From the NCBI GenBank assembly GCA_963697335.1, contig CAVONQ010000010.1:1-64000 (forward strand): a DNA stretch of 64,000 bases, read 5' to 3'. A model generated the notes under the pieces. It was not told the origin of the DNA, ran no database searches, and saw only the letters and a program-made list of their open reading frames with translations. The DNA is from an uncultured cyanobacterium (GTDB lineage Bacteria > Cyanobacteriota > Cyanobacteriia > PCC-6307 > Cyanobiaceae). Position 1 is the first letter of the stretch; the number at the start of each line of letters is the position of its first letter. The translations under genes and the position numbers were made by a program. Below are positions 9,259 through 33,324 of this stretch, one piece after another.

Positions 9259-9291
9259 AGAAGTATTTTTATACAACGCTGGAGGTGCAAC

Positions 9292-9546: not shown

Positions 9547-9574
9547 CCAAAAACAACCCAAGGAGGAAACAAAA

Positions 9575-10072: not shown

Positions 10073-10104
10073 CAATCCTGATAAACATTGAAACATTATT
10101 TGCG

Positions 10105-10133
10105 ACAGGGCGGTCATCCAATGATCGCCCTGT
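10105..10133 (+). terminator. Stem-loop after the ZraP-like gene
   Basis: acagggcggtcat-cca-atgatcgccctgt inverted repeat. Confidence 0.5.
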
Positions 10134-10178
10134 TGAAATTTGGTTGCATGAAATGGCTTTTCGACAAAGGAGTTTATC

Positions 10179-10370
10179 ATGAAAAATACACACAATGATT
10201 TATGGATCGAAGGCGGAAATAACAGAAGCAGTTTCTGAAACTGGCCGGTTATGGAACCCTTGGCCTGATGACAGGTGGTGTCTGGCCGCTGTTAGGTCAA
10301 TCAGCGGCAGAACAACCTGGAGCACGAAGACATGGGCATGATGCGCAATTACTATGTCAGAGGTGTATAA
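10179..10370 (+). pseudogene. Multicopper oxidase (CueO/CopA type) remnant: TAT leader fused to the extreme C-terminus
   Basis: RBS + ATG, frameshifted NR(x)QFLKLAGYGTLGL TAT leader, then in another frame NLEHEDMGMMRNYYVRGV-stop (end of the HCHxLEHEDxGMM copper motif). Confidence 0.75.
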
Positions 10371-10445
10371 AACGCCAACTCTGAAAACAGTGTGACCGGT
10401 AATGTTAGCGGCAGAAAAATGCCATAGGCGTAATCGCCGGGAAAA

Positions 10446-11018
10446 TCACGCCATATAGGTCGTTTTATCCGTAAAACTCTTCCTGGGTGTGGGAGCAGGA
10501 TCCCCAGCAGCCCTGCCGAGGCATACCAGTGCCAGGGGGATCTTGTCTGAGGCCAGATGGAGAAGTTTCTGAAGTTTGTCTCTGTCGAACAGGGTAAACC
10601 AGACCGATCCGATACCCAGGGCATGTGCGGTCAGCAGCATGTTTTGTACGGCAGCCGCACAGGCGTGTTCGTAGGCTCTGGCTCCTCCCTCCATAAACTG
10701 ATCGACACCCGACTTTTTGGGATCCCCGGTGACCGCAATGATGACGGGGGCCGACAGCAGAAATTCAACGCTGTACTTTCCCAACCATCCCCAAGCACTT
10801 TTTTGAACACCCTGTTCCCGGCTTCTTTCCGCTTCCGCGAAAATGTTATTCTTCACTTCGCTGTTGGAAATGACCACAAAGCTCCAGGGCTGGGCATTCA
10901 GGGGGGAGGGCGCCCAGGTGGCCGCATCCAGAATTTTCTCCAGGTGTTCCTTCTCGATGGGTTTGTCTGAAAAGCTTCTGCAGCTCCTTCTCTCTTTTAT
11001 GGCGGTCATGATGTCCAT
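10446..11018 (-). CDS. Nitroreductase family protein
   Basis: IKERRSCRSF, WAPSPLNAQPWSFVV, AVQNMLLTAHALGIGSVW. Confidence 0.9.
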   Translation of the reverse strand: MDIMTAIKERRSCRSFSDKPIEKEHLEKILDAATWAPSPLNAQPWSFVVISNSEVKNNIFAEAERSREQGVQKSAWGWLGKYSVEFLLSAPVIIAVTGDPKKSGVDQFMEGGARAYEHACAAAVQNMLLTAHALGIGSVWFTLFDRDKLQKLLHLASDKIPLALVCLGRAAGDPAPTPRKSFTDKTTYMA

Positions 11019-11060
11019 GGTGATTCCTTTCTTTAAATCCGAAGCACGAAATTCGAAATC

Positions 11061-12045
<985 letters not shown>

Positions 12046-15483: not shown

Positions 15484-17681
15484 GCGAATCCCGCATCACC
15501 GTTGCCCTCTCCACCGGCTTCCTCAAGGCCCTCAACCAGTTGCCGGAGAAGGCTCGCGGCAAGGTGGCGGCGTTCATCTCCAAGTTCCGCGACAATCCGC
15601 GCAGCCCTGGCCTCAACTACGAGCGCATCGAAGGCGGCAAGGATCCGCTGATCCGCTCGATCCGGGTCGATCAGGACATCCGCTGCATCCTGCGGGCGCC
15701 CGAGCAGGGAGACACCTACGTGCTGCTCTGGATCGACAAACACGACGACGCCTACAACTGGGCGCGGCGCAAGACCTGCCATGTGAACCGGGTCTCCGGT
15801 GCCCTGCAGATCGTCGATGTGGAGGCGGCCGAAACTGCCGTGGAGGAGGCGAGCGCATCGATCCGGCAGCGAAGCGGCTGGCCACAGCGCCCACCGTCAC
15901 CGCCCATCCCGGAGAGCGGCACCCGCCGCACGATCCGGCTTCGCTGTTCGCCCACTGCGACGATGACCAGCTCATGCTGCTCGGCGTTCCCGAGGCACTG
16001 CTGCCGGCCGTTCGTGCAGTCCAGAGCGAAGAGGCCCTGGCGCGGCTGATCGAGTGGGTGCCCCAGGATTGCGTCGATGGCCTGATCCTGCTGGCCGAGG
16101 GAAAGCCGATCGAGGCGGTGATCGAGGAGCTGGAGCGCCAGCGGCCCGCCCACATCGATCCCGAGGATGTGGCCACGGCGTTGGCCACACCCGAGAGCCA
16201 GGCGGAGTTTCTCGTCATCACCGACGACGACGAGCTGGAGGCCATGCTCTCGGCGCCGCTGGAGCAGTGGCGGGTGTTCCTGCATCCCAGCCAGCGACGA
16301 CTGGTGAATCGCGACTGGAACGGCCCGGTGAGGGTTCTGGGCGGCGCCGGCACAGGCAAGACGGTGGTGGCCATGCATCGCGCCCGCTGGCTGGCCAATC
16401 GCTTGCTCGCCTCTGGTGCCCCGGGCCAGGTGCTGTTCACCACGTTCACCCGCAACCTCGCCACCGACATCCGCAGCAACCTCGCCAAGATCTGCAGCCC
16501 GGAGGAGCTCCGGCGCATCGAGGTCATCCACCTCGATGGCTGGGTGATGACCTTCCTCAAGAATCAGGGTCTGCAGGTGCGGGTCTTCAACGACGAAGCC
16601 CGTGATGCCTGCTGGAGCCTCGCCATGGATGTGGCCGACCCTGCCCTGGGCCTGGAGGAGCGCTTCTACCGGGAGGAGTGGAAAGACGTGGTGCTGGCCA
16701 ATGGCTGCCGCACCCGTGACGACTACCTGGCGGCCCGGAGGATCGGCCGCGGCACCCGGCTGAGCAAGCAGCAGCGGGCTCAGATCTGGCCGGTGTTCGA
16801 TGCCCTGCGCGCTGAGTTCCGCCAGCGCGGGCTCTGGGAACCAGAAGAGGCCAAAACCGCAGCGGCGGATCTGCTGCGCAATGCCGACCAGGGCGGCCGC
16901 TACGTGGCGGTGGTGGTGGATGAGGCCCAGGACCTCGATGTCGCCTCGTTCTCGCTGATCCGGGTCCTGGCCGGCGAGCCCCATGCCAACGATCTCTTCA
17001 TCGTGGGCGATCCCCACCAGCGCATCTACGGCAAGCCGATCGTGCTCAGCCGCTGCGGCATCGATGTGCGCGGCCGCTCCCGCAAGCTGCGCATCAACTA
17101 CCGCACCACCGAGGAGACCCGCGCCTGGGCCACTGCTGTGCTTGGAGGGGGTCGACTTCGACGACCTTGATGGCGGCAACGACCCCAGCAGCGATTACCG
17201 CTCGCTGCTCCACGGCGAGAAGCCCGTGCTGCGGGGCTTCGAGGACCTGCTGACGAACAGCGCTTCCTACAGGACGCTCTCACCCAGCTCCGCGCGAGCC
17301 GATGGCAACCTTGCCTCCACCTGCGTGACCCTGCGGACCAAATCGGCCCGCGACCGGCTCGCCCAGGCCCTGGAAAAGGCGGGGTTCTCCGTTCGGCTGA
17401 TTGAGGCCAATGAAGCCGACGACCCCAGCGATCCTGCCCTGCGCGTGGCCACGATGCATCGCGTCAAAGGGCTGGAGTTCGATCAGGTCTTCATCCCCGA
17501 GCTCACAGCCGACCAGATGCCCTACCGCTTGGAATTGAACCGGCGGCCGGATCTGGTCTCGCGTGAGCTGTTCGAGCAGCAAGAGCGATCGCTTTTGCAT
17601 GTCGCGGCCACCCGAGCAAAGAAGAGGGTGGTCGTGACCTACAGCGGCAAGCCATCGTCATTTCTGACGCCAGGAGGCTGA
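15480..17681 (+). CDS. UvrD-like SF1 helicase with N-terminal RelE-like domain; frameshifts near 15900, 17150 and 17270
   Basis: KFRDNPRSPGLNYERI...SIRVDQDIR N-terminus; GGAGTGKT, VVDEAQD, VGDPHQRIY, INYRTT, TMHRVKGLEF, VAATRAK. Confidence 0.82.
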
Positions 17682-17734: not shown

Positions 17735-18646
17735 CTAGCTGCCCTGACACCCAGGGAAGATCAAATCCGCCGCCTGCCGCGCATCACTCAGCACCTGAAA
17801 GAGCACGCTGGGCGATTCCTTCAGCAGCTCGATCCAGTGGCCGAGATAGGCAGCGTGGCTCTCGATCTGGCAGCCGATCTCCAGCCGCTGGCCGAGTAGC
17901 ACGGCGCCGAGCTCGGCGACCAGCTCCTCGCGGGCGTAGAGGGGGCAGCCCATGCGGCCACCAAGATCCCGGTTGAGCCGGGACTCGTGGCCCGTGGAGT
18001 GGATGGCTTCGTGGGCCCAGGTGGCATAGAGCGCTGCGCTGGAGTGGAAGGCGGCGCGATCAGGCAGCTGGATGCGATCGATGGCCGGGGCATAGAAGGC
18101 GCGATCGCCGCCATGGCCGACGGGCACGCCCCAGGCGGAGAGGCTGGCTTCTGCCCTGGCGAGCCGCTCGGGCTCTGGCCGCACCTGGGGCGATTCGCTG
18201 GCCTGGCGGCTGGCGATCAGGCCATCGAGGGCCTCGCCCTGCAGATCGGCGGCATTGAAGATCGCCACGGGGCGGAAGCTGGCCCAGCTGCGGAGCACCT
18301 TCTCGCCGCCTTCTGCTTCCTCCTCGCGGGAGTGCAGCTGGGGCCTCAGGATGCGGACGGCCTTGGAGCCCTTCTTGGGCACGATGCCGAGCTTCTTGGC
18401 CTCGCCGAAGCCGCACCAGAAGGGCAGTGCTGAGCCACGAAGGTGCATGCCCAGGGTGAGCAGGATGGGATTGGCGCCGCTGTAGCGCTGGCCGGAGAGC
18501 AGATTGACGTGATGGCCGCCGCCTGTGGCATCCCAGGGCCGGCGCCAGGGGTTGGCGCCCCGCTCCATCAGGGCGATGAGATCGGCGACCATTGCCTCCT
18601 GGGGAGAGGGACCGGAGTGGGCGCGGCGTGAACGGGAGCTGGCCAT
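17735..18646 (-). CDS. ardC: ArdC-like antirestriction protein (DUF1738 ssDNA-binding + zincin-like domain), copy 1
   Basis: PWRRPW, YSGANPILL, AFYAPAIDRIQLP, HEAIHSTGHESRLNR, YAREELVAELG, HAAYLGHW. Confidence 0.88.
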   Translation of the reverse strand: MASSRSRRAHSGPSPQEAMVADLIALMERGANPWRRPWDATGGGHHVNLLSGQRYSGANPILLTLGMHLRGSALPFWCGFGEAKKLGIVPKKGSKAVRILRPQLHSREEEAEGGEKVLRSWASFRPVAIFNAADLQGEALDGLIASRQASESPQVRPEPERLARAEASLSAWGVPVGHGGDRAFYAPAIDRIQLPDRAAFHSSAALYATWAHEAIHSTGHESRLNRDLGGRMGCPLYAREELVAELGAVLLGQRLEIGCQIESHAAYLGHWIELLKESPSVLFQVLSDARQAADLIFPGCQGS

Positions 18647-19618
18647 GGCAGGCGGAGCGTGGGCCGACCATGAGGCATCCCTCGCGACGGTTTTCAGCTC
18701 TCGTGAGCCTTAGGAGCTTGCTGAAAAACCCGGCCATCTCTGCGAAAATGGGCCAACTGCCCAGTCCAGATGCGAGGTCACCGGGAGCGCAGCGGCTCCC
18801 TGTTCTCCTACGTGTCGATTGAGGAGCGGATCCCGACCAGTCATCCGCTGCGGCGGATTCGGAAACTGGCGGATCAGGCTCTCGATCGACTCAATCCCAC
18901 CTTCTGTGAGCTCTACGCCGCAGAGGGCCGGCCCTCGGTGCCGCCAGAGCAGCTGCTGCTGGCCTCGTTGCTGCAGGCGTTCTACGGGATCCGCTCGGAG
19001 CGGCTGCTGCTCGAGCAGCTCCACTACAACCTGCTGTTCCGCTGGTTTGTGGGGCTGAGCCCGGATGATCCGATCTGGCACCCCACCACGTTCACCAAGA
19101 ACAGGGAGCGGCTGCTCAATGACGAGGTCATGGGGCGCTTCCTGGAGAAGCTGATGGGTGCTCCGGAGGTCAAGCCGCTGCTCAGTGACGAGCACTTCTC
19201 AGTCGATGGCACCTTGCTGCAGGCCTGGGCCTCCCATGCCTCGCTGGAGCGGATCGATGGGCAGGACGATCCACCGCCGCCGCCGTCAGGCCCTGGCGAG
19301 GGCTTTGGCGCTCCAAAGCCCGGCAAGAAACGGGCCAAGGGTGATTTCCGCGGCATCAAGCTCAGCAACAAGACCCATCGCTCCGGCGTCGATCCCGACG
19401 CGCTGCTGTGCCGTAAATCCAAGGCCCATCCGGCGCTACCCAGCTACCGGGGGCACGTGCTCATGGACAACCGCCATGCCCTGATCGTCGATTGCAGCGT
19501 GACGCAGGCGACGGGCACTGGGGAGCGGGATGCCGCGAAAGCGATGGCGGCGTCGTCCCGGTGCCCACCAGAAGACGATCGGTGCCGACAAGAACTACGA
19601 CTGTGATGATCCTGGCAA

Positions 19619-19817: not shown

Positions 19818-20900
19818 ATGGCTCCACCAACCTTGACACAGTCCGACTCTCTGCGGACTCCTGATGTCGTGATCGGCGTTGACACCCACAAGGACATCCA
19901 TGTGGCTGTGGCCCTGGCCCCCAATGGCGGCAGGCTCGGCGATTGCCGGATTCCCACAACCCGCAAGGGCTATGACGAGCTGATCACCTGGTCGGAGCAT
20001 TTCGGCTACGCACCGGTCTTTGCCGTCGAGGGCACCGGTTCGTTCGGAGCCGGGCTGTGCCGCGAGCTTGTCGATGCTGGCTACGAGGTCGTCGAGGTGA
20101 ACCGCCCCGATCGCTCCACCAGACGCCGCCTCGGCAAGGACGACGCCATCGACGCCGAGGCCGCTGCCCGAGCGTGGATCGCTGGCACGGCGACGGTGAC
20201 GCCCAAGGCAGGCTCCGAGAGGGTGGAGATGATCCGGATGCTCAAGTGCGCCAAGGATTCGGCCACCGACAGCCGCACCCGGGCGATCAACCAGATCAAG
20301 GCGATCCTGGTGACCGCTCCGGCTGCACTGCGTGAGCGGCTGGAGCATCTGCACCGCGGCGCCCTGATCCGGGCCTGCGCGGCCCTGAGGCCCGGCCTGC
20401 TGGATGCCCCAGTGGCGGCGGCCAAACGGGCACTGCGCAGCCTGGCTCGCCGTGTTCAGGCCCTGGAAGCGGAAATCGCCGAGTTGCGGGACGACCTCGA
20501 TCAGCTCACCCAGGCTGTTTGCCCTGCCCTGCGCCAGACCTTTGGCGTGGGAGTCGACAACGCCGCCACCCTGCTCACTGCGGCTGGCGACAACCCGGAG
20601 CGCCTGCGCAGCGATGCTGGTTTCGCGGCGCTCTGCGGCGTCAATCCCCTGCCGGCAAGCTCAGGCAAGACCAACCGCCATCGCCTGAATCGGGGAGGGA
20701 ACCGCCAGGCCAACGCGGCCCTGCACCGCATCGCCGTGGTGCGGCTGCGATGGGATGAGCAGACCCAGTCCTACGCCGAGCGCCGAACAGAGCAGGGGCT
20801 CTCGAAACCGGAGATCCTGCGCTGCCTCAAGCGTTTCATTGCCCGCGAGGTGTTCCGAATCCTCATGGGCGGTCCAGCTGTGCGGCTGAAGAAGGTGTGA
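19818..20900 (+). CDS. IS110 recombinase/transposase (DEDD RuvC-like + C-terminal Ser domain)
   Basis: IGVDTHKD, AVEGTG, KDDAIDAEAAA, PLPASSG, RLNRGGNRQANAAL. Confidence 0.93.
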   Translation: MAPPTLTQSDSLRTPDVVIGVDTHKDIHVAVALAPNGGRLGDCRIPTTRKGYDELITWSEHFGYAPVFAVEGTGSFGAGLCRELVDAGYEVVEVNRPDRSTRRRLGKDDAIDAEAAARAWIAGTATVTPKAGSERVEMIRMLKCAKDSATDSRTRAINQIKAILVTAPAALRERLEHLHRGALIRACAALRPGLLDAPVAAAKRALRSLARRVQALEAEIAELRDDLDQLTQAVCPALRQTFGVGVDNAATLLTAAGDNPERLRSDAGFAALCGVNPLPASSGKTNRHRLNRGGNRQANAALHRIAVVRLRWDEQTQSYAERRTEQGLSKPEILRCLKRFIAREVFRILMGGPAVRLKKV

Positions 20901-21778
20901 GTCCACAAGGGGCACCAGCCCAGGCTCCCGCCAACCAGGCCGCCCGCTGCCCCGTTGCGGGCGGCCTGGTTGGCGGATGGAGAGCCGGACGCATCTCCGT
21001 CATGGCATCGCCGAAATGCTGCGCCAAGGGGGTTGACGATCTATACGAGCATCACCAAGGGATTCGTCGCCGAGATGCGCCGCATCGGCGTCACACCTCA
21101 CGTGGCTCAGAACACCGCCCGCTCTGGTGGTTCCGCCATCGATGGCCGCACCACCCGCCACGAGGGCTACGCCAAGTCGATCAATGCCCGCCGCGGCATC
21201 GAGAAGGTGTTTGGCTGGATCAAACAGTGGGGCGGCCTGCGCCAGTTCAAGGTGCGCGGCACCGAGAAGGTGAGTGCGGTGTTTGGCCTGCACGTGATCG
21301 CCTACAACCTGATCCGCCTGGGCAACCTGCTCAAACCGGCGATGGCGACGGCATGAACAGGTGGTTGCCCAGAGGTGTGGCCAGGTGGCCGCGATCAGGG
21401 AGCCCAAAAGGGGCAAAACACGCCAAAATCGGGAGTTCTGAGCCGCTGAAACGCTGAAAACCAGCCCGAAAGGAGCTGCATCAGCTCTCAGGAGGGGAAA
21501 ACGCGGCTTCTCAGGCTGGTTTTTCCGCAAACTCCTAGAGGCTCCCAGGGAATGATGCTGGCAAGCGTAACCCAGCGATTGTTCGGATCGAGCATGCCCC
21601 CAAGGGGGGCATGAAAGTCACCTCTCCTCAATGGATAGCTGACCGTTGTGCTGAAAAACGTACATTTTCAGGTCAGCAAATTCTTCTAGCCCACTAATGG
21701 CTGATCTGCTCTCATTCTAGCGTGAGACCCTGACTGGAATCCACTGCGCCGCAGGTGATCTAGGTTCCACAGCAAGCT

Positions 21779-24019: not shown

Positions 24020-24199
24020 TCAACTAAGCCGGTCGCAATCCGCGTGAGCTGCATGCAGCTCCTCGAGCGGGCATCGGATCAGCCAGGCCAGATCCTCAAG
24101 GCCGAGCAAGGGTGCCGTGGTGGACCTGATCTCGGTGACCGTGACTGGGTGGCCCAGGGAGGAGCCACCGCGCTCGACGTGAACCAGATACTCGGCCAT
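24020..24199 (-). CDS. Small hypothetical protein (59 aa) downstream of hairpin repeat A
   Basis: MAEYLVHVERGGSSLGHPVTV...; ATG lies 43 nt from the GCAAGGG arm, similar to cassettes B and D. Confidence 0.45.
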   Translation of the reverse strand: MAEYLVHVERGGSSLGHPVTVTEIRSTTAPLLGLEDLAWLIRCPLEELHAAHADCDRLS

Positions 24200-24230
24200 G
24201 GGTGAGGCGCGCGAAGGACGCGAACGAGCA

Positions 24231-24304
24231 GCGCGGGGAGGGCAAGGGGCGGAGAGCGCAGCGAGCCGCCTTGCGCAGCCCTTGCCCCGCCGCGCACCGT
24301 GAAG
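24231..24304 (-). repeat. Hairpin repeat A (GCAAGGG...CCCTTGC), single-stranded-promoter-like
   Basis: gcgcgg..gcaaggg gcgg-agagcgcagcgag-ccgc cttgcgcag cccttgc..ccgcgc..tgaag. Confidence 0.75.
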
Positions 24305-24383
24305 CGGGCCGCCGCCGCCTCCTGTTGCCTTGATCCGAAGGCCTTCGCTCGAAAGCCGGGGCGCCAGGCCCCGGCGCCGCTGC

Positions 24384-24773
24384 TCAGGCCGCCACCACGG
24401 CCGCGCTCGGCAGGGCCACCCCGAAGCGCCAGAGCACGGAGCGGGCGTGCTCGGCCTGCTGCTCGCTGAGGGCCTGCCAGCCGCCGCTGACGGGATCGGG
24501 GCAGATGCCTGCCGCCCGGCCGTGGATCAGCGAACCGCCGAGCAGCGGCCAGTGGAAGCTCGGCTGGCAGTGCTGCTCAGCCCAGAGCCCGCCGTGGGCC
24601 AGCCAGATCGGGCCGACACGGCTGGCGGTGACGGCATCGACCGGGCAGCCGCAGAACCAGGCGAGCACGTGGGCGGGGAGCTCGCTGGTGGGCACCACCA
24701 GCACCTGGAAGCGGGTGTGCGGCATGCCGCGTGAATCGCTGGTGCGGCTGAGCAGAAGCGTGTGTGGAGCCAT
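24384..24773 (-). CDS. Hypothetical protein downstream of hairpin repeat B
   Basis: ORF from ATG 24773 (MAPHTLLL...), 42 nt from the GCAAGGG arm. Confidence 0.55.
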   Translation of the reverse strand: MAPHTLLLSRTSDSRGMPHTRFQVLVVPTSELPAHVLAWFCGCPVDAVTASRVGPIWLAHGGLWAEQHCQPSFHWPLLGGSLIHGRAAGICPDPVSGGWQALSEQQAEHARSVLWRFGVALPSAAVVAA

Positions 24774-24803
24774 GGCGAAAACGCCGGAGGACTTCACGGA
24801 TCA

Positions 24804-24877
24804 CCACGGCGAGGGCAAGGGCCGCTGAGCGCAGCGAGGCGGCCTGCACCGCCCTTGCGCCGCCGTGGACCGTGAAG
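24804..24877 (-). repeat. Hairpin repeat B
   Basis: ccacggcg..gcaaggg ccgc-tgagcgcagcgag-gcgg..cccttgc..cgccgtgg..tgaag. Confidence 0.75.
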
Positions 24878-25002
24878 AAGGCCGCCGCCCTCTCCATCGC
24901 GACCGGCCGTTTTTCTCACCCTGTTTGGCAGTTGCTGGCGTTGCCGCTGAGCTGCTGGCAATAGGTGGTGACGTGACTGGGGGGTTCGCCCCGGGAGTGA
25001 CC

Positions 25003-25902
25003 ATGGGCCTGACCTTGATCGAGGCGATGAAGCACGAGACGCGGGTCGATCGGCTCGCTGTCACCAAGACCTTCGCCGAAGGTGAGCTTCTGCGCCGTTT
25101 GACGTTCCGCAATCTCTCTGGCGGTGCTCTCAAGTTCGCCAAGGAGGTGAAGATGCCTCGGGTGGGCTTTCGTGCGGTGAACGAGGGCTACCGGCGCAGC
25201 TACGGCGCCATCGCCAACGACACCGAGTTTGTGCACCTGTTCGGCGGCGATCTCGATGTGGACCGCTCGATCGTGGACCTGAACGGCCCGGAGGCTCGTG
25301 CCAGCCAGACGGAGCAGAAGGTGCGTTCGATGCGCCTCACCTTGGAGGCGGCGATCATCAACGGTGACGACACTTTCGACCCTCGGGCGTTCAACGGCCT
25401 CAGCAAGCGCCTGGTGCCGGCTGGGCCTCGGACGATTGACAACGAGGGCGGCACCGTGAAGCTCACCAAGCTCGAGGAGCTGGTGGACTCGGTGAACGCC
25501 AACGGCGGTGAGAAGGTGCTGATCACCAGCAAGGCTGGCCGGCGCCAGATCAGCCACGCCAGCCGTGAGGCCGGTGGCGATCTGTATCAGGTCATGGACG
25601 GCCGCCACTACTTCGAGGACAGCGAGATCCTGGTGGTGGATGAGGATGCCAACGGTCATCCGGTGCTGGGCTTCGGAGAGGCCGGCAGCACCACCAGTTT
25701 TTACTGCTGCGCCTTCGGCGATGAGCTCGTGACCGGCCTGCAGGGTCCCTTTGAGGGGCGCTACGGCATCTCTGTACGGGATTTCGGCGAAGTGTCTGAC
25801 GCCCCGGTGTTCCGCACCCGTGTGGATTGGTACGTCGGCTTTGCTGTGTGCCACGACCGAGCCGCAGCGCGGCTGTTCAACATTGGCCCGGCCGTGAGCT
25901 GA
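25003..25902 (+). CDS. Phage-type major capsid protein (HK97 fold predicted)
   Basis: MGLTLIEAMK, P.VGFRAVNEGY, FGGDLDVDR, INGD....AFNGLSKRL, RTRVDWYVG.....AAARL motifs typical of this capsid family. Confidence 0.82.
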   Translation: MGLTLIEAMKHETRVDRLAVTKTFAEGELLRRLTFRNLSGGALKFAKEVKMPRVGFRAVNEGYRRSYGAIANDTEFVHLFGGDLDVDRSIVDLNGPEARASQTEQKVRSMRLTLEAAIINGDDTFDPRAFNGLSKRLVPAGPRTIDNEGGTVKLTKLEELVDSVNANGGEKVLITSKAGRRQISHASREAGGDLYQVMDGRHYFEDSEILVVDEDANGHPVLGFGEAGSTTSFYCCAFGDELVTGLQGPFEGRYGISVRDFGEVSDAPVFRTRVDWYVGFAVCHDRAAARLFNIGPAVS

Positions 25903-25941
25903 GGCGGACTTTCTGATCACCATTCCTCTGAGGACACGACC

Positions 25942-26388
25942 ATGGCCAAACTTCTCGATGCCGCCACCACCCTGATGGGGTGGGTCAATTACTCCGCGAC
26001 TCCCCACGAGGAGGAGCGGGTGATTGCGCAGGCCACCACTGTGAAGCTCACGACTCCGCTTGACCTGGCGGACACCTTCACCTTCGTGGCCTCCCATCCC
26101 GGCCACGTTGCTGCTGTCACCTTCACCCTGCAGGTGGCTCCGGAACTGCTGGATGGAACGATGGGCACCTGGGTGCAGGCCGCCCAGGTGGCGGTTCCCG
26201 CCGGCGGCGGTCGCGTCGAAGCGCCGCTGAACGGCAGTCTGCTGAGCGTGGCGTCTGCTGATCTCAGTGACGTGGCTCCGGGCCACATGCTCTACGCCCG
26301 CGTCACCGCTACGGTCCCCGCCGCCCAGCCGGAGGATCCGCCTGTGGCCGCCAATCCTTCTGGCGCCTACGCCGGACTCACCTATTGA
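25942..26388 (+). CDS. Putative capsid decoration/cement protein
   Basis: 148 aa, beta-strand rich (VTFTLQVA, YARVTATV), directly after the capsid gene. Confidence 0.5.
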   Translation: MAKLLDAATTLMGWVNYSATPHEEERVIAQATTVKLTTPLDLADTFTFVASHPGHVAAVTFTLQVAPELLDGTMGTWVQAAQVAVPAGGGRVEAPLNGSLLSVASADLSDVAPGHMLYARVTATVPAAQPEDPPVAANPSGAYAGLTY

Positions 26389-26398
26389 GGCTGGCCCG

Positions 26399-26860
26399 AT
26401 GACAAGCGATCTGATGGTGCCCAGCGGGATGCTGCGAATCTCCAGGCAGGGTGAGGTGGACCGTGTGATCTACCCGGTGCACGCGGACGGCTGGCGTCAG
26501 CAGGGCTGGACGGTGCATCCGCCGGTGCTGGACTCAGAGGATGAGCAGGAGCCGCCGCAGCCGTTGGCAATGGATGGCACGCTGCTGTCTCAAGACGGCG
26601 CCGACCTGGGGGGCGAGGGGGAGGCCGAGCCGCCTTTCCCCGAGCCGATCGACCTTGAGCGCCTGACCAAGGCGCAGATCGAGCAGGTGATGCTTGATCG
26701 CTACGGCGTGAACCTGGACACCAGCCACACCCGCGCTCAGCTGATCGCCGCGGCCCAGGCGGTGATCTCTGCTGCACCTGCTGCTGAGGCGGACCCCCAG
26801 GAAGAGCCCGAGGCCCGCGACGGCGAGGTGGGCGCCGTGGTGCCCCAGCTGCTGATCTGA
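26399..26860 (+). CDS. Acidic head-associated protein with HeH/Rho-N-like helix-extension-helix motif
   Basis: IDLERLTKAQIEQVMLDRYGVNLDTSHTRAQLIAAA; such genes commonly follow capsid genes. Confidence 0.55.
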   Translation: MTSDLMVPSGMLRISRQGEVDRVIYPVHADGWRQQGWTVHPPVLDSEDEQEPPQPLAMDGTLLSQDGADLGGEGEAEPPFPEPIDLERLTKAQIEQVMLDRYGVNLDTSHTRAQLIAAAQAVISAAPAAEADPQEEPEARDGEVGAVVPQLLI

Positions 26861-26884
26861 GCGCCCCCTTCAGGTGCAGAGCCC

Positions 26885-26916
26885 GCCGGCCGAGGACCCT
26901 TGGGTTCTTGGCCGGC
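26885..26916 (+). terminator. GC-rich hairpin between head genes and fibre genes
   Basis: gccggccgaggacc-cttg-ggttcttggccggc followed by attt. Confidence 0.5.
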
Positions 26917-26964
26917 ATTTCTGCATGGCTGCTGGCAAAGGGGAGTAGCCCTCCCGCGTGAGTG

Positions 26965-27759
26965 ATGCCCTACCCGCTTCCCTCCTCGCCGGCGCAGAAC
27001 GGAGATCGAGTGCGGCTTCTGCCGCCCGTTGGCTGCCCTGGCGGCGAGGAGTGGGTGGTGCCCCACCAGGCGCGGCGCTGGCTGGAGCTGGGCTTTCGCC
27101 TTGGCCCGGTGCCTGCGGCATCGCTGGAGCTGTTCTGGATGCCCTCGCCCAGGCGCTGGAACGAGGACGCGGCCACCGCGGCCATTGAGCTGAGCGTGGA
27201 TCCCCGCGGCGTGCCGATGCAGGACCTGACGGTGCTCTGGGGTGACGGCACCACCGAGTTGGTGCCCTGGAGCGTTGGCCGGCCCGACATCCCAAAGCTG
27301 CGGCACGTCTACCAGGAGCGCCAGGACCTGACCGTGTCGGTGACGATGGGCCTCAACCTGGCCCAGCTGGAGGTGGCACTGCTGGGCTGCCCGCTGCCGC
27401 CGAGCCTGATGCTGGGCACCAGGCCCCCTGGCGCCGGCGGCGTGACGGGCCTGGCCGGCGTGGAGCCGCTGGTGCCTGGCGATGGCCTCGAGGGCCAGGC
27501 CTACAACGGCACCGCCACGGAGGTGTGGCGATTGCGGTTGCACCCGCAGGGCGGACTGGGGCTGCTGCCGAGCCCCATCGATGGCAAGCCGGCGCTGTCG
27601 GTGATGTTCGGCTCCGGTTCGGCCAGCCGCGGCACCCGTTGGTACGGCGCCGAAGGACCGCCGACGCCGGAGTGGATGGAGCTGGTGCAGCCACCCCCGG
27701 CGCCGGGTGATTTCTACCTCGATCGGGTGTCGGGCCTGGTCTACGAGCTGGTGGCCTGA
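26965..27759 (+). CDS. PKD-like domain protein ending in a fibre-junction motif (putative fibre adaptor)
   Basis: LTVLWGDGTTE..RHVYQ (PKD-like); C-terminal RGTRWYGAEGPP...GDFYLDRVSGLVYEL. Confidence 0.55.
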   Translation: MPYPLPSSPAQNGDRVRLLPPVGCPGGEEWVVPHQARRWLELGFRLGPVPAASLELFWMPSPRRWNEDAATAAIELSVDPRGVPMQDLTVLWGDGTTELVPWSVGRPDIPKLRHVYQERQDLTVSVTMGLNLAQLEVALLGCPLPPSLMLGTRPPGAGGVTGLAGVEPLVPGDGLEGQAYNGTATEVWRLRLHPQGGLGLLPSPIDGKPALSVMFGSGSASRGTRWYGAEGPPTPEWMELVQPPPAPGDFYLDRVSGLVYELVA

Positions 27760-27761
27760 CG

Positions 27762-28745
27762 ATGGCCTGGGCCAACACGGGCGATTCGCTGCTGGGCCCC
27801 CCGGGGCAGCCGGGACCAGCAGGCCCCCAGGGCGATCCTGGCCCTCAAGGTCCAGCGGGGCCAGAAGGCCCACCGGGGCCGTTGGCCGGCACGCCGGTGG
27901 AGGCACCCTGGGTCGACCTCGAGGAGGAGGACGAGGAGGCCCCTGTACCCCCGCCGCGTCGACTGCGCACCTTCACGCGGCTCCGAGCTGGCCGTGTGAT
28001 GTTGATTCAGCGGGGCCCCAATGGGTCGCGCACGGCCCTGCAACCGGCCCTGTTCGACAACTTTGTGTGGAGGGTCTTTCCCAGTGCGACCTCGACGATT
28101 TCATCTGTAGGTGGCAACCACACGACCTTGGGCACGATTAGCCACCCGTTGCCGGATCCCAACTACGGCTGGATGACTAACGTGCAGACGATCAGTCAAG
28201 TTGGCTTCGCTGCTGGCACCAGAAATCGTGATGAGCTGTGGCGCCGGGGTGATGGCACCGGCTACGGCGGCTTCTTCTTTTCCGCTCGCGTTGCGTTTCC
28301 TGACAGTACCTACGACTCCGATGGCGGCGGCACGGGCACGCGCATCTTCATCGGCTTCACGAACCAGACATTTAACACTACTGCCGCTTCCGATGAGCCC
28401 CCGGGTCACTTCTGTGGCTTCTTTCGGCGTGCCACTGAAGGCGGTGCTACTGATCAGAACTGGCAGTTCGCCACGAAGAACGGCAGCACCATGACGCTGG
28501 AGAATACGGGCCTGGCTTTTACTCCCCAGCGGGCTCTCGACTTTCAGATCTACGTGCCGCCCCATGGTGATGAGATCGGCTGGGCAATCCAGGACTTGAC
28601 GACGGGCAACCGCTTCAAGGGCAGCCAGACGCAGACACTTCCAGGGCCGACAGTCCAACTGTTTGCCGGTATCCAGCTCAGAACGTCGGACGCGAGGATC
28701 CGCAACATCCGCTTTCAGGGTTTGTACTGCGAGAGCGACCGCTGA
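27762..28745 (+). CDS. Collagen-like fibre protein with beta-rich (lectin-like) C-terminal tip
   Basis: (G-X-Y)n N-terminus [29 protein letters not shown]; Thr/Gly/Phe-rich C-domain. Confidence 0.7.
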   Translation: MAWANTGDSLLGPPGQPGPAGPQGDPGPQGPAGPEGPPGPLAGTPVEAPWVDLEEEDEEAPVPPPRRLRTFTRLRAGRVMLIQRGPNGSRTALQPALFDNFVWRVFPSATSTISSVGGNHTTLGTISHPLPDPNYGWMTNVQTISQVGFAAGTRNRDELWRRGDGTGYGGFFFSARVAFPDSTYDSDGGGTGTRIFIGFTNQTFNTTAASDEPPGHFCGFFRRATEGGATDQNWQFATKNGSTMTLENTGLAFTPQRALDFQIYVPPHGDEIGWAIQDLTTGNRFKGSQTQTLPGPTVQLFAGIQLRTSDARIRNIRFQGLYCESDR

Positions 28746-28785
28746 CGGTGGCGCCTGGCAATAGAAGGCAGATCGGCGTTGCCTG

Positions 28786-30030
28786 ATGGCCTGGACAAAC
28801 ACCGGCTCGATTCGTGGACCCCAAGGTGTGCCTGGTCCCAGCGGCTCAGCGGGGCCTGCGGGCAGCCCTGGCCCCGAGGGCCCTGCTGGCCCCCAGGGCG
28901 TAGCGGGAGCACCAGGGGAAGCTGGCGCGGCCGGGAGCATCGGACCGGCGGGGCCTGCAGGGCCGACTGGGCCAGCCGGCGAGACTGGCCCGCAGGGCCC
29001 TGCCGGCACGGGCATCAACCTGAAGGGCTCGGTGGCGACCTTCTCGGCCCTGCCGACCAGTGGGCAGCAGCAGGGCGATGCCTATGTGGTGCAGGACGAA
29101 GGCGAGACGCTCTACGTCTGGGACGCCGCGACCACTGACTGGATCAACGCCGGCGAGATCCGGGGACCAGCGGGCGCAGCCGGTGCAGCGGGTCCTGCAG
29201 GTCCTGCTGGGCCAGCAGGGCCCCAGGGCGATCCCGGCGCGACAGGCCCAACCGGTCCCCAGGGCCTCCAGGGCGCGGCCGGGCCAGCGGGGAGCATCGG
29301 GCCGGCCGGTCCGCGCGGCACCGGCTGGTTTGTGGGCAGCGGGCCGCCGCCTGCTTCCATCCCTGGCGCGGTCAGCGGTGACCTCTACCTCGATTCGAGC
29401 AGCGGCGCTGTGTACCAGCTGCAGGGGTTTGCAGTGGGCGACCTGCCGGCGATTGGCGCGAGCTTCCAGGGCGGCTTCTACGCCGGGTTGATCTCGGCCA
29501 CAGCGGATGGAGCGCCGACCCATGCGCTGGTGATTGCGCCGGTGTCCACGGGTCAAACCAGCCTGGCCAGCAAGACAACCAACACAAGCACGCCCGGTAC
29601 TGACAGTGTCTTTGATGGCCTGGCTAACAGCGAGAGCATGAACAATGCCCTGCACCCTGCGGCGCAATGGGCCCGTGCGCTGACAATCGGTGGCTTCACT
29701 GATTGGTATGTTCCTGCTCGCGATGAGCTGGAGATCATCTATCGGCGCTTCAAGCCAAGCAACCCCCCAGCGAATGTGACTAATGCTGGAGCCAATGCCT
29801 ATGCAGTACCGCCAACCAGCAACTACACATTCTCAGTTCCAGCTGCCACGGCTGTTGCTGACTATCAGCCTGGCCAGGCTCAGGCTTTCCCTGCCACCTT
29901 CCTCCTTACTTCGACTGAGTTTGCGGCCGGCGCGATGTTTGTGAAGTCCTTCTCGGATGGCAGCTCGACGCAATCCAACAAGAACAATCCGCTGACCGTG
30001 CGGGCGATCCGCAAGGTCCTGGTGTTCTGA
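28786..30030 (+). CDS. Collagen-like fibre protein with DUF1566/C-type-lectin-like C-terminal domain
   Basis: Two collagen tracts; [46 protein letters not shown]. Confidence 0.75.
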
Positions 30031-30033
30031 GCC

Positions 30034-30441
30034 ATGCCGTGGATCCAGCGTGAGGCGCAACGACGGCTGACGGAGCAGCAGGAACTGAGCACCATGGCTG
30101 GGCCAGTGCTGAGGCCCCTGCGCTTTGAGCTGCTGGGTAGCGCTGGCCTGCTGCTCAAGGTCCGCTGTGACCATCCGGCCTGGCTGAGCTTCTATGTCAG
30201 CGAGGCGGCCCTGGTGGCGGACGGCGGGCGGCCCCAGGGCCAGGACCCGGCGCCCAGCTCGGGCGTGGTGTGTGATCTGTTGTTCACGGCCGGGATGCTG
30301 GAGCTGCTGCTGCCGCCGGGGGTGAGCTGGGCGAACCAGGACAGCCCTCTGGCCCCGGTGCTGCATGGGGTGCTGCGCACGGAGCTGGAGGCGCCGGCGA
30401 CGGTGAGCCTGGCGGTGGATGCCCTGGCGCTGAGCTTCTGA
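30034..30441 (+). CDS. Phage fibre-associated structural domain protein
   Basis: LLKVRCDHPAWLSFY......D..R....DPAPSSGVVCD resembles a domain I recall from cyanophage fibre proteins. Confidence 0.5.
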   Translation: MPWIQREAQRRLTEQQELSTMAGPVLRPLRFELLGSAGLLLKVRCDHPAWLSFYVSEAALVADGGRPQGQDPAPSSGVVCDLLFTAGMLELLLPPGVSWANQDSPLAPVLHGVLRTELEAPATVSLAVDALALSF

Positions 30442-30615
30442 TGGCAAGGTGCCGCGGCCGGGCCGGCACCGGTGTCCCCTGGCCCCGCGCCACCGGCTGA
30501 CCGGGGTTGCACACCTTCCTGGGGGCGCCATGACCTGCAACCTGATCCGCCTGCGCTGTGAGCGCAGCTACGGCCCCTCTGGCGAGGCCCTGCAGCCGCA
30601 GGCGTGGCCTGGGCC

Positions 30616-30885
30616 TCAGCTCGCGGCCCTGGCCTCGATGCTGCGCTCGCGGGCAGCCTCGAGGGTGGCATCGATCTCGCCGGTGCGGGCGAGGAACTGC
30701 TCGATGGCGGGCAGCAGCTCCTCCTCCAGCAGGGCGAGCTCCTCTTCCCCGTAGGGGTGATCGATCCAGAGGCGGCGGATCGGCCGACCCCTGTGCTGCT
30801 CGAGCAGCCGCCGCAGGGAGGTGTGGCATGACTGCACCACGGCGACGGGATCCTGACGGGTGAGGGAATCGAGCTGGAAGGACAT
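30616..30885 (-). CDS. Hypothetical protein (89 aa) downstream of hairpin repeat C
   Basis: MSFQLDSLTRQDPVAVVQSCH...LWIDHPYGEEEL; GC3-rich codon usage. Confidence 0.55.
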   Translation of the reverse strand: MSFQLDSLTRQDPVAVVQSCHTSLRRLLEQHRGRPIRRLWIDHPYGEEELALLEEELLPAIEQFLARTGEIDATLEAARERSIEARAAS

Positions 30886-30931
30886 GGCGGGCAGGCGCCT
30901 GGTGGGCGCGGTGACGGGACGCGAAGCGAAG

Positions 30932-31005
30932 CCGCCGGGATGGCAAGGGCCGCCGAGCGCAGCGATGGCGGCTTGCGCAGCCCTTGCCCCCGGCGGACGC
31001 TGAAG
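30932..31005 (-). repeat. Hairpin repeat C
   Basis: ccgccggg..gcaaggg ccgcc-gagcgcagcgat-ggcgg cttgcgcag cccttgc..cccggcgg..tgaag. Confidence 0.75.
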
Positions 31006-31051
31006 CAGCCCGGCACAGCCCTGGGATGGGGCCATGCCGGGCCCGCAGGCC

Positions 31052-32005
31052 TCAGGCCGCCACCGGCTGCGCCGCTGCGGCATTGGGCTCCCGATCGGGC
31101 GCCGGAGCCTCGGGGCAGATCAGATCCACGGCCTGGCGTGCCTCGCTGACCAGCTGGAGCAGCAGCCTGGGTGACTCGCGCAGCACGGAGATCCAGCTCT
31201 CCAGATAGGCGGCGTGATTGGTGAGCTCACAGCCGATCTGCAGCCGCTGCCCCAGCAGGACGCTGCCCAGCTCTGCGACCAGCTCCTCCCGGGCATAGGG
31301 CCTGGAGCCGAAGCCGCCTGAGAGATCCCGCTTGAGGCGGGACTCGTGGCCGGTGGAGTGGATGGCCTCGTGGCCCCAGGTGGCGTAGAGCGCTGCAGCG
31401 CCGTGGAAGCTCTGGCGCCCTGGCAGCTGGATCTGATCGGTGGCCGGGACATAGAAGGCCCGCTCACCGCCCCAGCCGACCGGCACCGGCCAGGCTGCGA
31501 GGATCTCCTCGGCTTGGCTGATCGGCTCGATGGCCGGCCGCTCTGGGGCCTGGGGCATGCGGGCCTGGATCAGGCCGGCGAGGGCCTCACCCTGCAGATC
31601 GGAGACATTGAACACCGGCACCGGGCGATAGCTGGCCCAGCTGTGGAGCACCTTCTCGCCGCCTTTCTCCTCCTCGCGGCAGTGCAGCTGGGGCCGGAGG
31701 ATGCGGACGGACTTGCTGCCCTTGAGCGGCACGATGCCGAGCTTCTTGGCCTCGGCGAAGCCGCACCAGAAGGGCAGCGACGAGCCGCGCATGGCCATGC
31801 CCAGCTCCAGCAGGATTGGGTTGCCGCCTCGATAGGCGCGGCCGGTGAGCAGATTGATGTGGACGCCGCCGCCTGTGCAATCCCAGGGCTTCCGCCAGGG
31901 CGTGGTGCCGGCCTCGAGCAGCTCGATCAGATCGCGCACCATGGCCTCCTCGGGCGAGGGGCCATCGAACTTCTTGCGGCGGTGCGTGGTGGTGGATGCG
32001 GCCAT
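31052..32005 (-). CDS. ardC: ArdC-like antirestriction protein, copy 2
   Basis: PWRKPW, YRGGNPILL, HEAIHSTGHESRLKR, YAREELVAELGS; paralog of 17735-18646. Confidence 0.9.
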   Translation of the reverse strand: MAASTTTHRRKKFDGPSPEEAMVRDLIELLEAGTTPWRKPWDCTGGGVHINLLTGRAYRGGNPILLELGMAMRGSSLPFWCGFAEAKKLGIVPLKGSKSVRILRPQLHCREEEKGGEKVLHSWASYRPVPVFNVSDLQGEALAGLIQARMPQAPERPAIEPISQAEEILAAWPVPVGWGGERAFYVPATDQIQLPGRQSFHGAAALYATWGHEAIHSTGHESRLKRDLSGGFGSRPYAREELVAELGSVLLGQRLQIGCELTNHAAYLESWISVLRESPRLLLQLVSEARQAVDLICPEAPAPDREPNAAAAQPVAA

Positions 32006-32036
32006 GGGACAGGGCGCAAAGGACGCCGAAGTGACC

Positions 32037-32115
32037 GCGCGGACAGCGCAAGGGCGGGAGGCCCGCCAGGGCCGAGCGCTTGCGTAGCCCTTGCGCCATT
32101 CCGCGCACACTGAGG
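32037..32115 (-). repeat. Hairpin repeat D upstream of ardC copy 2
   Basis: gcgcgga..gcaaggg..cttgcgtag cccttgc..tccgcgc..tgagg; ATG 43 nt from the GCAAGGG arm. Confidence 0.7.
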
Positions 32116-32141
32116 CAACCAGCGCGCCCAACCCCCTGGCT

Positions 32142-32660
32142 TCAGGCAGCCTTCCTGCGCCTTTCGGCGGGGAGGGTGACGACCAGGCTGGTGGGAGGGA
32201 CGCCTGGAAGTCCGTAGAGGCCAGCAGCGACGCTCTGGAGATCGTCCAGGCGGAAGGTGCGGCCGATGTTGCGCAGCTCGATCACGTCCTTGGGTCCGAA
32301 GTTGTGGACGCGGAAGCGCTGCATGTGATTGAAGGGCCCGTGCTCCTTGGTGGTGTTGGCGAAGCTGAAGCTGTGGCTGCCGTCGCCCTTGAAGTCGATG
32401 ACCGAGTTGACCCGCTTGGTGATCGCTCCGGCCTGGGGCCCGAACTCGATGTGATCGGCGCCCTTGATGCTCCAGCTGGCGGCCATGGCGCGGTCGATCG
32501 ACACCTTGCTGACCGGGCCTTTGAGCCTGATGCGGATGCGGTTGATGACGGGCTGACCGGCCCAGCCGTTGTTGCCGCGCAGGATGAGGCGATCGCCCTT
32601 GCTGGAGAGGCTGGCGTTGATCCAGTTGGGCAGGCCGCTGACGAAGTCGTTGGGGTCCAT
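32142..32660 (-). CDS. Hypothetical protein
   Basis: 172-aa ORF with host-like codon usage; no family recognised. Confidence 0.6.
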   Translation of the reverse strand: MDPNDFVSGLPNWINASLSSKGDRLILRGNNGWAGQPVINRIRIRLKGPVSKVSIDRAMAASWSIKGADHIEFGPQAGAITKRVNSVIDFKGDGSHSFSFANTTKEHGPFNHMQRFRVHNFGPKDVIELRNIGRTFRLDDLQSVAAGLYGLPGVPPTSLVVTLPAERRRKAA

Positions 32661-32718: not shown

Positions 32719-33036
32719 TCAGGCCTGCTCGGCCAGCCAGTGGAGAGCGGAGCGAATCACCTCGGCGTGGCAGGGCAGCGGAGCGCACCAGCACATCAGC
32801 TCCAGCCGGCCGGCCCGGGCCCGCCCGAGCAGCTGCTCGAGCTCCTGGTGCTGGATCGAGCCGGGCTCCTGCAACCGCCCCCAGAGCCAGCGCCGGTAGC
32901 GGGCGATCACCTCAGCGCGGCTGCCATTGCGGCCGAGCTGGAAGGGATTGCCGAGCGGGCTTGGCCGGCCCACATAGGCCTGGCCGGGCAGGGGATCAGA
33001 GAGCCCTCGCCGGGCCTTGCCGATCGTGATTTCCAT
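32719..33036 (-). CDS. DUF4326 domain protein
   Basis: YVGRPSPLGNPF, RAEVIARYRRWL, LMCWCAPLPCHAEVI. Confidence 0.85.
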   Translation of the reverse strand: MEITIGKARRGLSDPLPGQAYVGRPSPLGNPFQLGRNGSRAEVIARYRRWLWGRLQEPGSIQHQELEQLLGRARAGRLELMCWCAPLPCHAEVIRSALHWLAEQA

Positions 33037-33201
33037 GGCGCCTCCGCCGGTGTGCGCCCTGACCACGCTGCCGAAGGTGGCGATGCTGAGGGGTGGCGCC
33101 GGTGGACGCCATGGACATGCGATCCGCAGCGGGGCGTGAGTGCACAGCCCTGAACGGTCAGGCCGGATCGGTCGACCGGTGCTTCCGCCAATCCTGCCTG
33201 T

Positions 33202-33221
33202 TTGCGTACATCTTGCGTACA
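33202..33221. repeat. Direct repeat TTGCGTACA x2, candidate integrase arm-type site
   Basis: ttgcgtaca-tc-ttgcgtaca about 30 bp from the tRNA 3' end. Confidence 0.5.
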
Positions 33222-33250
33222 AGCCCCAGGCCCAATCCCTGAGAAGTCAA

Positions 33251-33324
33251 TCGGGGCGACAGGATTCGAACCTGCGACCTAGTGCTCCCAAAGCACCCGC
33301 GCTACCAAGCTGCGCCACGCCCCG
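33251..33324 (-). tRNA. trnP: tRNA-Pro (anticodon UGG)
   Basis: cggggcgtggcgcagcttggtagcgcgggtgctTTGGGAgcactaggtcgcaggttcgaatcctgtcgccccga folds as a cloverleaf; loop tt-TGG-ga. Confidence 0.95.

Follow-up and report, generated by a model that had tools for sequence, protein, structure and literature searches.

A covarying hairpin element before ardC and other small genes of picocyanobacterial phage-like islands: a candidate template-strand DNA initiation signal

What is the large hairpin that recurs directly before ardC and other small genes in a phage-like island of an uncultured cyanobacterium (family Cyanobiaceae), and is its working form DNA or RNA? The locus lies in the first 64 kb of contig CAVONQ010000010.1 (henceforth the window), which is part of a 98.8%-complete genome of 2.58 Mb with 66–70% G+C. 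The initial annotation of the window had described four hairpin elements (here E1 to E4), each heading a leftward gene, and had taken them for single-stranded promoters of an island that enters cells as single-stranded DNA (ssDNA). Our analysis places these elements in a family that is tied to gene starts, and the strand on which its characteristic loops lie points, tentatively, to a DNA hairpin formed by the template strand of the downstream gene.

All four elements were recovered where they had first been seen, as were the spacings between CCCTTGC arm and minus-strand ATG (43, 42, 58 and 43 nt for E1 to E4, respectively) and the assignment of one of the genes as ardC (see Table 1). The copies, each of about 95 nt, have in common the GCAAGGG/CCCTTGC arms, compensating outer stems, an inner hairpin and a tail, TTCG(G)CGTCCTT, which in three of them is followed by CCATGG 12–13 nt past the 3' end of our covariance model; E3 reads CCAGG at this position. 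E4 has a divergent apex (GGCCC-TGGC-GGGCC), and E1 and E2 share a 111-nt repeat with 77% identity. The original description of stems and arms was therefore accurate, whereas the TGA(A/G)G "tail" it had included turned out to form one side of an additional outer helix (P1, see below). The loop it had read as gagcgcagcga is also present; in addition, this loop and a 9-nt bulge each bear GCGNAGC on the plus (i.e., template) strand.

Taken as a family, the element is an imperfect hairpin of 95–150 nt with about 24–35 pairs, consisting (from the outside inwards) of P0, an internal loop, P1, P2, P3, a junction motif and P4. P0 is the helix that joins the 5' flank to the stretch directly before the ATG, and inside it lies the internal loop, with CCTCA on one side and GTCC opposite; P1 and P2 are covarying helices, P3 is the invariant GCAAGGG/CCCTTGC, and P4 is an apical hairpin of variable length. 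In the four window copies, a structure of 24 pairs had 94.8% of its cells paired and eight pairs changed on both sides, and none of 500 shuffles matched this pairing together with its two-sided changes. Among 108 distinct relatives, 90.7% of cells were paired (compared with 68.3% in shuffles) and two-sided changes were found in 20 of the 24 pairs, amounting to 510 cells as opposed to 179 in shuffles. P0 was assessed by its duplex energy, which averaged -20.1 kcal/mol for native flank-tail combinations and -16.7 kcal/mol for non-native ones, the native combination being better in 66 of 84 cases; the associated p-value of 4e-9 overstates the support because the copies are related. Whether it works as DNA or as RNA, the element is a large, strongly covarying cis element matched by no Rfam model: across the whole window a tRNA alone reached the gathering score, and between 23900 and 32300 no Rfam match overlapped an element at E up to 5.

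We built the covariance model from the four window copies and delimited copies elsewhere by its coordinates (a collection based on regular expressions caught only 16). At a threshold of E up to 1e-3, the element was found in 13 of the 31 other genomes of the genus, the remaining 18 being without it. Within the family, it was present in 36 of 150 other sampled genomes and in 18 of 64 genera (own genus counted), while the small, low-GC genomes of this sample had none. One IMG/VR provirus record carries seven copies on a single strand, and altogether we assembled 151 distinct copies. A pattern scan of a species-representative genome collection returned at least 123 stretches, and most of those listed came under the titles Cyanobium, Synechococcus, Vulcanococcus, Aphanothece or unnamed Cyanobacteriota; a scan of viral contigs returned 16. 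No match was found in cultured-phage records, and a blastn search of E4 with its flanks against 72,556 PLSDB plasmid records gave three matches of 22–41 nt at E 0.4, i.e., at chance level, and none in F-like plasmids. We also found no description of the element in the literature on prophages, ArdC and hairpin or ssDNA promoters, which was covered largely at abstract level.

In the genome that contains the window, the strict core occurs at the four element sites and at one unrelated site, and the covariance model recovered the same four together with one weak match (E 0.027) on another contig. Since the only strong copies are these four, all within 8 kb of one island, the element is not a genome-wide repeat of the REP/BIME type (repetitive extragenic palindromes and the mosaic elements made of them), which is the pattern that the initial annotation had named as speaking against its proposal. 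Its expectation of a cyanobacterial element family tied to gene starts was borne out. Orientation is equally regular: wherever a contig or record has at least two matches (15 cases), these lie on the same strand, the exceptions being weak opposite-strand echoes of the palindrome and one separate weak match (E 0.01), and island copies run in the opposite direction to the capsid and tail genes.

The tie to gene starts is close. An ATG or GTG stands 11–14 nt past the 3' end of the model in 69 of 84 distinct copies (at exactly 12 nt in 47), and 12 of the 84 have no start codon 8–19 nt past this end. Even in variants in which the hairpin is 32–34 nt further off, the spacing of about 15 nt between GTCC and ATG is held. 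We tallied 126 callable downstream open reading frames (ORFs), some from loci that overlap at one genomic place, and these fell into seven main families: ArdC (29 instances), a family of 81–248 aa that includes the 89-aa protein of the window (23), a family of 129–212 aa that includes its 129-aa protein (16) and four further small families (14, 13, 11 and 11), leaving one pair and seven singletons. The subtype of the element tracks the family of the downstream gene. Besides ArdC, the sole family match concerned one of the singletons, which resembles Sipho_Gp157 (5.8e-11) and a Mu Gam-like PHROG (1.3e-13). With ArdC in 29 of the 126 and a Gam-like protein once, the suggestion that these elements head ardC and other early-type genes holds.

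In the window itself, the ArdC behind E4 combines ArdcN with a zincin-like metallopeptidase and is of the anti-restriction type. For the 129-aa protein behind E2, the protein atlas proposed DUF3846 (score 0.91, low recognition), and for the 89-aa protein behind E3 it gave nothing. That the three ORFs of no known family encode anti-defence proteins, as had been proposed, is accordingly still a guess, given that Pfam and PHROG returned no match and DUF3846 is only a weak lead. By eye, we also noticed short GC-rich hairpins at 24356-24378 and 31010-31045, just past the points where the 129-aa gene and ardC stop; they lie between the gene and the next element and have no clear T run behind them.

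To ask in which form the hairpin works, we compared its two strands. G.U pairs are usually tolerated by functional RNA helices, but not by hairpins of DNA or by a cruciform, for which both strands must fold. In the element, the cells of P2, P3 and P4 comprise 1806 Watson-Crick pairs, 12 G.T, 19 A.C and 57 others, and no G.U intermediates are seen where a pair alternates between C-G and U-A (e.g., pair 47-109, with CG 40, UA 37, GC 25 and GU 0). These counts supersede an earlier G.U tally over 35 distinct sequences, which was dominated by one pair. The motif GCGNAGC/GCGNNAGC, with all four bases represented at N, was counted 284 times on the template strand, where 146 of 151 elements have it; the sense strand gave 28 occurrences and shuffles 16.6 +/- 4.4. 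Similarly, predicted apical loops of the form c-G(N1-2)A-g were found in 68 of 118 cases on the template strand and in 1 of 118 on the sense strand. According to the parts of the published accounts drawn on here, sequences of this type form extraordinarily stable mini-hairpins as DNA, are far less stable as RNA and are poorly bound by SSB (the protein that binds single-stranded DNA), and they are found where primase starts on the ssDNA of phages G4/St-1/alpha3, within RSF1010 ssiA and in the early promoters of N4 (PMC13037366); supercoiling extrudes the N4 template-strand hairpins, which have a sheared G:A loop, and SSB stabilises them (PMC4496689).

Ordinary promoters, by contrast, were not detected. 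Promoter-like sites with sigma-70 -35/-10 boxes numbered zero on both strands between 23900 and 33400. TANNNT was found in 5 of 151 elements on the sense strand and 2 of 151 on the antisense strand, and when up to two mismatches per box were allowed, -35/-10 pairs turned up in 2 of 84 copies on the sense strand and in 1 of 84 on the antisense strand. Yet copies of the E2 type need a start of their own, because they are located in a divergent intergenic region.

The reading we prefer, at a probability of roughly 45%, is that the element may be a structure-specified initiation signal in the form of a template-strand DNA hairpin, closest to the N4 hairpin promoters and ssi signals. The working form would be DNA rather than RNA, with the template strand of the downstream gene as the strand that folds, because it is only there that the extra-stable loops (GCGNAGC, GCGNNAGC and c-GNA-g) stand out. 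The strand could fold either while it is single-stranded, as in replication or on entry, or when supercoiling extrudes it from the duplex, as at N4 early promoters. An RNA polymerase or a primase would then begin RNA near the base of the hairpin, around the GTCC box 15–19 nt before the ATG, and the outcome would be an mRNA with a short leader for ArdC and its companion genes, with no -35/-10 promoter involved. One part of the single-stranded promoter proposal would thereby survive, since the signatures, as far as sequence can tell, favour a DNA hairpin on precisely the strand that such a promoter needs.

Several known systems resemble the element in part. Phage T7 carries conserved irregular hairpins between its early genes, including one before the anti-restriction gene 0.3, as RNase III sites; these act as RNA, whereas our element is nearly without G.U and has its loop signature on the other strand. 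The following comparisons draw on parts of the cited papers. The N4 promoters share with the element a template-strand hairpin, a G-N-A loop with a sheared G:A, a position at the head of early genes of a double-stranded DNA (dsDNA) phage and the lack of -35/-10 boxes (PMC4496689, PMC13037366). They differ in that N4 stems are of 5–7 bp with a start about 8 nt downstream, while the element spans 95–150 nt with a three-way apex, and in that N4 brings a virion RNA polymerase of 3,500 aa, no gene for which was seen in the fetched islands. The Frpo/ssi hairpins of F and ColIb-P9 are likewise repeated in one orientation before anti-restriction and establishment genes, with the template strand folding, and may have a second role as priming signals (PMC11541004). 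Frpo, however, rebuilds sigma-70 -35, -10 and UP elements beside the origin of transfer (oriT), and our element comes without such boxes, plasmid similarity or transfer genes. The G4/St-1/alpha3 origins and RSF1010 ssiA have mini-hairpin motifs, GCGNNAGC or related, on the copied strand (PMC13037366), but they are single replication signals with no link to a start codon, whereas the element is multi-copy and stands 12 nt before start codons. The closest concept in print is EGeRS1, a mechanistically unexplained, GC-rich multi-hairpin repeat that precedes ardC and four other establishment operons on pLS20 without a sigma-A promoter (PMC8708921). Compared by concept only, EGeRS1 differs in its length of 400–600 bp and in that the transferred strand of pLS20 is the non-template strand (PMC8708921).

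Look-alikes were also found outside the cyanobacteria. Among the matches listed, the GCAAGGGCTNCGCRAG...CCCTTGC core, with the mini-hairpins on the same strand, occurs within long hairpins of Firmicutes and Rhodothermales (loci L113, L122, L081, L119, L138, L131 and L080). These matches include eight loci of Christensenella/Pumilibacter, several copies per genome in Enterococcus cecorum and E. columbae, a Eubacteriales metagenome-assembled genome (MAG) with a 100-aa HNH gene 46 nt on in the cyanobacterial-type orientation, a Clostridium MAG and a Rhodothermales MAG. At three of the Firmicutes loci listed, the hairpin lies beside a gene for the rolling-circle Rep REP_ORF2-G2P (PF23343), at two of them also beside a large serine recombinase, and with respect to the Rep-coding strand the look-alike has the template-type orientation; we count this association with rolling-circle elements among the signs of a DNA-level hairpin. 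The pattern comprises 22 bases, for which we estimate (by our own arithmetic) 10–30 chance matches in 596 Gb, a figure that tells against our preferred reading and on account of which we regard singletons inside coding regions as noise; the covariance-model scores of the Firmicutes hits, having been pre-selected by the pattern, are not independent evidence either. The Firmicutes loci matched nothing in Rfam at E up to 0.1, blastn of the Christensenella-type and Enterococcus-type hairpins against the plasmid collection gave no match, and no PF23343 Rep exceeded the cut-off in 32 genomes of the cyanobacterial genus. One could speculate that the GCAAGGG-junction-CCCTTGC module with its two mini-hairpin caps is a portable start signal with no need of a promoter consensus, used across phyla by mobile elements (phage-like islands in picocyanobacteria, rolling-circle elements in Firmicutes), of which a conserved host enzyme reads the folded template strand, and which would fire anti-defence genes such as ardC on unwinding or supercoiling, before ordinary promoters; we consider this broader proposal rather improbable.

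Several observations besides those chance matches pull against a template-strand DNA hairpin, and most of them favour a structured 5' leader RNA. In such a leader, the hairpin would form in the mRNA, P0 would hide the ribosome landing region, and a factor (e.g., RNase III-type cleavage, a helicase or an RNA-binding protein reading the CCUCA/GUCC loop or a GCRA loop) would control translation or mRNA life. The junction motif, C-U-N-(A)-C-G-C-R-A-G, can be read on the sense strand as C(GCRA)G, a GNRA-type loop whose R fits the variable junction position, and next to P3, in P2b, a G.T pair is conserved in sense orientation (56 G.T as opposed to 2 A.C), which on the template strand would be an A.C mismatch. 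P0, joining the 5' flank to the stretch before the ATG, buries this region as a translational control leader would, and the fixed distance between element and start codon and the match between element subtype and downstream gene would suit a leader as well. E1, E3 and E4 lie between genes of the same strand, so that read-through from upstream is possible. Folding energies do not discriminate between the strands (with flanks, 40 of 84 copies had the sense strand as the more stable one, and for the element alone 31 of 83), the copies share descent, so that per-copy counts overstate independent support, and no gene for an N4-like giant RNA polymerase was found, the largest ORFs of the fetched islands being of about 1,000–1,160 aa. 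We nevertheless regard the leader RNA as less likely than the DNA hairpin, though as its main and a serious rival: its heavily covarying helices would be nearly devoid of G.U (12 compared with 1806 Watson-Crick pairs), its U-N-C apical loops have no known stability as RNA while their complements are classic DNA mini-hairpins, no upstream promoter was detected even for E2-type copies in divergent regions, no Rfam family matches, and in the Rep-adjacent Firmicutes look-alikes the orientation on the transcribed strand is the opposite one.

The remaining explanations retain parts of the same evidence. ECF (extracytoplasmic function) sigma factors read a GTC -10 element, and GTCC is the best conserved block of our element, held 15 nt from the ATG even when the hairpin is displaced; the GTC(C) could hence be the -10 element of a duplex promoter, with the hairpin as an insulator or terminator of upstream transcription. 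An ECF-like sigma factor of 184–222 aa (sigma70_r2 + r4, i.e., regions 2 and 4 only) belongs to the backbone of the related islands and is encoded in the island pieces of 7 of the 9 genomes from which such pieces were fetched, and in the family sample it occurs in 20 of 36 element-bearing as opposed to 9 of 114 element-free genomes (overlap hand-counted). However, it was not found in the other 16 of the 36, nor in the genome of the window; there is no conserved -35 at 16–17 nt upstream, where instead the covarying P2/P1 strand lies; the covariation and the strand-specific loops would go unexplained; and a better candidate target for the sigma factor stands before the late genes (see below), all of which makes this account very unlikely. 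We think still slightly less of a conjugative leading-region promoter of the Frpo/ssi type, in which host sigma-70 polymerase would read -35/-10 boxes rebuilt by the hairpin on the entering strand. The repeated, one-orientation hairpins before ardC and small genes and the DNA-hairpin signatures of the template strand are what it would lead one to expect, and the concept agrees with the published account, as far as this was drawn on (PMC11541004); the element is nevertheless not a Frpo homologue, because sigma-70 -35/-10 hexamers are absent from either strand, and this part of the initial annotation also fails on the lack of similarity to PLSDB plasmids. Its corollary that the island enters as ssDNA found no support, since capsid and tail-fibre genes of the tailed dsDNA phage type are present in the islands, neither VirB4 (PF03135) nor relaxase PF03432 had a match in the genome of the window (other relaxase families and oriT lay outside the search), and none of 260 called island ORFs scanned from other genomes was a transfer gene. 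Least probable, in our view, is that the element is a recombination site for gene cassettes, acting as a folded single strand like an integron attC site and allowing element-plus-gene units to be shuffled. An imperfect palindrome with unpaired bases and a centre of variable length, the changing order of gene modules among islands and the 111-nt repeat of E1 and E2 would agree with this. But an attC site belongs to the upstream cassette, while our element co-varies with the downstream and not the upstream gene, and a distance of 12 nt from the ATG suggests a role in gene expression; moreover, the arms are unlike the consensus of attC core sites, and no integron-type integrase was seen beside the element arrays of the window or the fetched islands, the lone tyrosine-recombinase match being weak (8e-6) and confined to one island piece.

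The candidate just mentioned is the motif CTGGCAAWRG, which lies on the plus strand 30–48 nt ahead of three gene starts (those of the capsid, a 265-aa protein and a tail fibre), has five matches in the window compared with 1.1 expected, and is also found before capsid and tail genes of related islands (L064, L070 and L072). We propose it as a candidate late promoter, distinct from the hairpins and, rather than the GTCC box, the more likely target of the island sigma factor. Sigma-54-type and ECF-type readings of both CTGGCAAWRG and the GTCC box were tried by eye and set aside, as they revealed no consistent second box.

The island that contains the elements extends from about position 12 kb of the window to a tRNA-Pro gene, with the element-bearing genes on the minus strand and a structural block on the plus strand (see Table 1), and it also holds helicase fragments, insertion sequence (IS) copies and a second ArdC. 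Its capsid protein is 40–42% identical to capsids of tailed dsDNA phages (e.g., cyanophage PSS2). The provirus record and the island pieces from nine other genomes have the same layout, and one of these pieces contains terminase and portal genes. The cargo of the related islands comprises BREX, type I restriction-modification and DISARM-like genes as well as toxin-antitoxin pairs. Defence cargo was seen beside element-bearing genes in the provirus record (L063:1626-11186) and at L070:65-7955 and L067:6754-15333, the sets being DUF499 with DUF3780 and an SNF2/PLD helicase; BREX (BrxA, BrxB, BrxC and a methylase); and type I restriction-modification with GmrSD. A preprint on a "relic prophage" of WH8016 (10.1101/325100) concerns a different tRNA-Pro island, and the part of it consulted does not mention hairpins.

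The island of the window is decayed, with IS insertions and without the sigma factor of its relatives, and its four copies may therefore no longer be used. The second ArdC (17738-18646, minus strand) has no hairpin element and has an IS directly upstream, where a DUF772 transposase gene is split by an IS110-family insertion (18770-19603, 19818-20897 and 20955-21353); an element may once have stood here and been displaced by this insertion. A frameshift is suggested by a UvrD-type helicase, the reading of which runs across two overlapping frames (15974-17167 and 16983-17678); together with an ORF that has Helicase_C only (12099-13148), this is a further sign of decay. Outside the island, positions 1-12000 have about 50% G+C, in contrast to 66–70% elsewhere, and encode the C-terminus of an aldehyde ferredoxin oxidoreductase, a sigma-54 activator, two histidine kinases and a nitroreductase, with an IS110-type fragment (11416-11814) at the edge; this block is either foreign DNA or a mis-join.

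Table 1 Features of the window and sigma factor loci of related islands. Distances to start codons are counted from the 3' end of the covariance model.
Feature	Position	Strand	Remarks
E1	24212-24306	minus	P1-P4 hairpin and GTCCTTC tail; covariance model E 2.2e-22; ATG of 59-aa gene at 13 nt
E2	24785-24879	minus	divergent region between capsid gene and 129-aa gene; covariance model E 1.9e-20; ATG of 129-aa gene at 12 nt
E3	30914-31007	minus	between ardC and 89-aa gene; covariance model E 1.3e-20; ATG of 89-aa gene at 28 nt
E4	32018-32117	minus	heads ardC; covariance model E 1.9e-17; ATG of ardC at 12 nt
59-aa ORF	24020-24199	minus	behind E1; no family match
129-aa ORF	24384-24773	minus	behind E2; weak DUF3846 lead only
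89-aa ORF	30616-30885	minus	behind E3; no family match
ardC (317 aa)	31052-32005	minus	behind E4; ArdcN 7e-19, MPTase-PolyVal 1.1e-37, phrog_7245 8.8e-65
172-aa ORF	32142-32660	minus	upstream of E4 on the same strand; without an element of its own; no family match
DUF4326 gene	32719-33222	minus	2.9e-20; beside the tRNA; conserved backbone gene of these islands
tRNA-Pro(TGG)	33251-33324	minus	right edge of the island
Structural block	25003-30441	plus	capsid, genes without family assignment, collagen-like tail fibres
Major capsid protein	25003-25902	plus	phrog_212, 5e-52
Collagen-like tail-fibre protein	27762-28745	plus	
Collagen-like tail-fibre protein	28786-30030	plus	
CTGGCAATAG	24955-24964	plus	copy of CTGGCAAWRG; others at 26932 and 28755
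ECF-like sigma factor	L066:1787-2398		
ECF-like sigma factor	L069:11091-11657		
ECF-like sigma factor	L070:10172-10813		
ECF-like sigma factor	L071:11237-11902		
ECF-like sigma factor	L073:10668-11234		
ECF-like sigma factor	L075:10661-11212		
ECF-like sigma factor	L076:9176-9727		

The family would provide a sequence handle, in the shape of a covariance model and 151 distinct copies, in searches for early or anti-defence gene sets, and six of the seven gene families behind the element are without annotation. The contrast between the strands, i.e., few G.T pairs and mini-hairpin motifs on one strand, makes the choice between DNA and RNA a testable one. If the template-strand DNA hairpin is the correct reading, gene starts that are read from a hairpin structure would extend beyond F-like plasmids and N4-like phages to the phage-like islands of freshwater and brackish picocyanobacteria.

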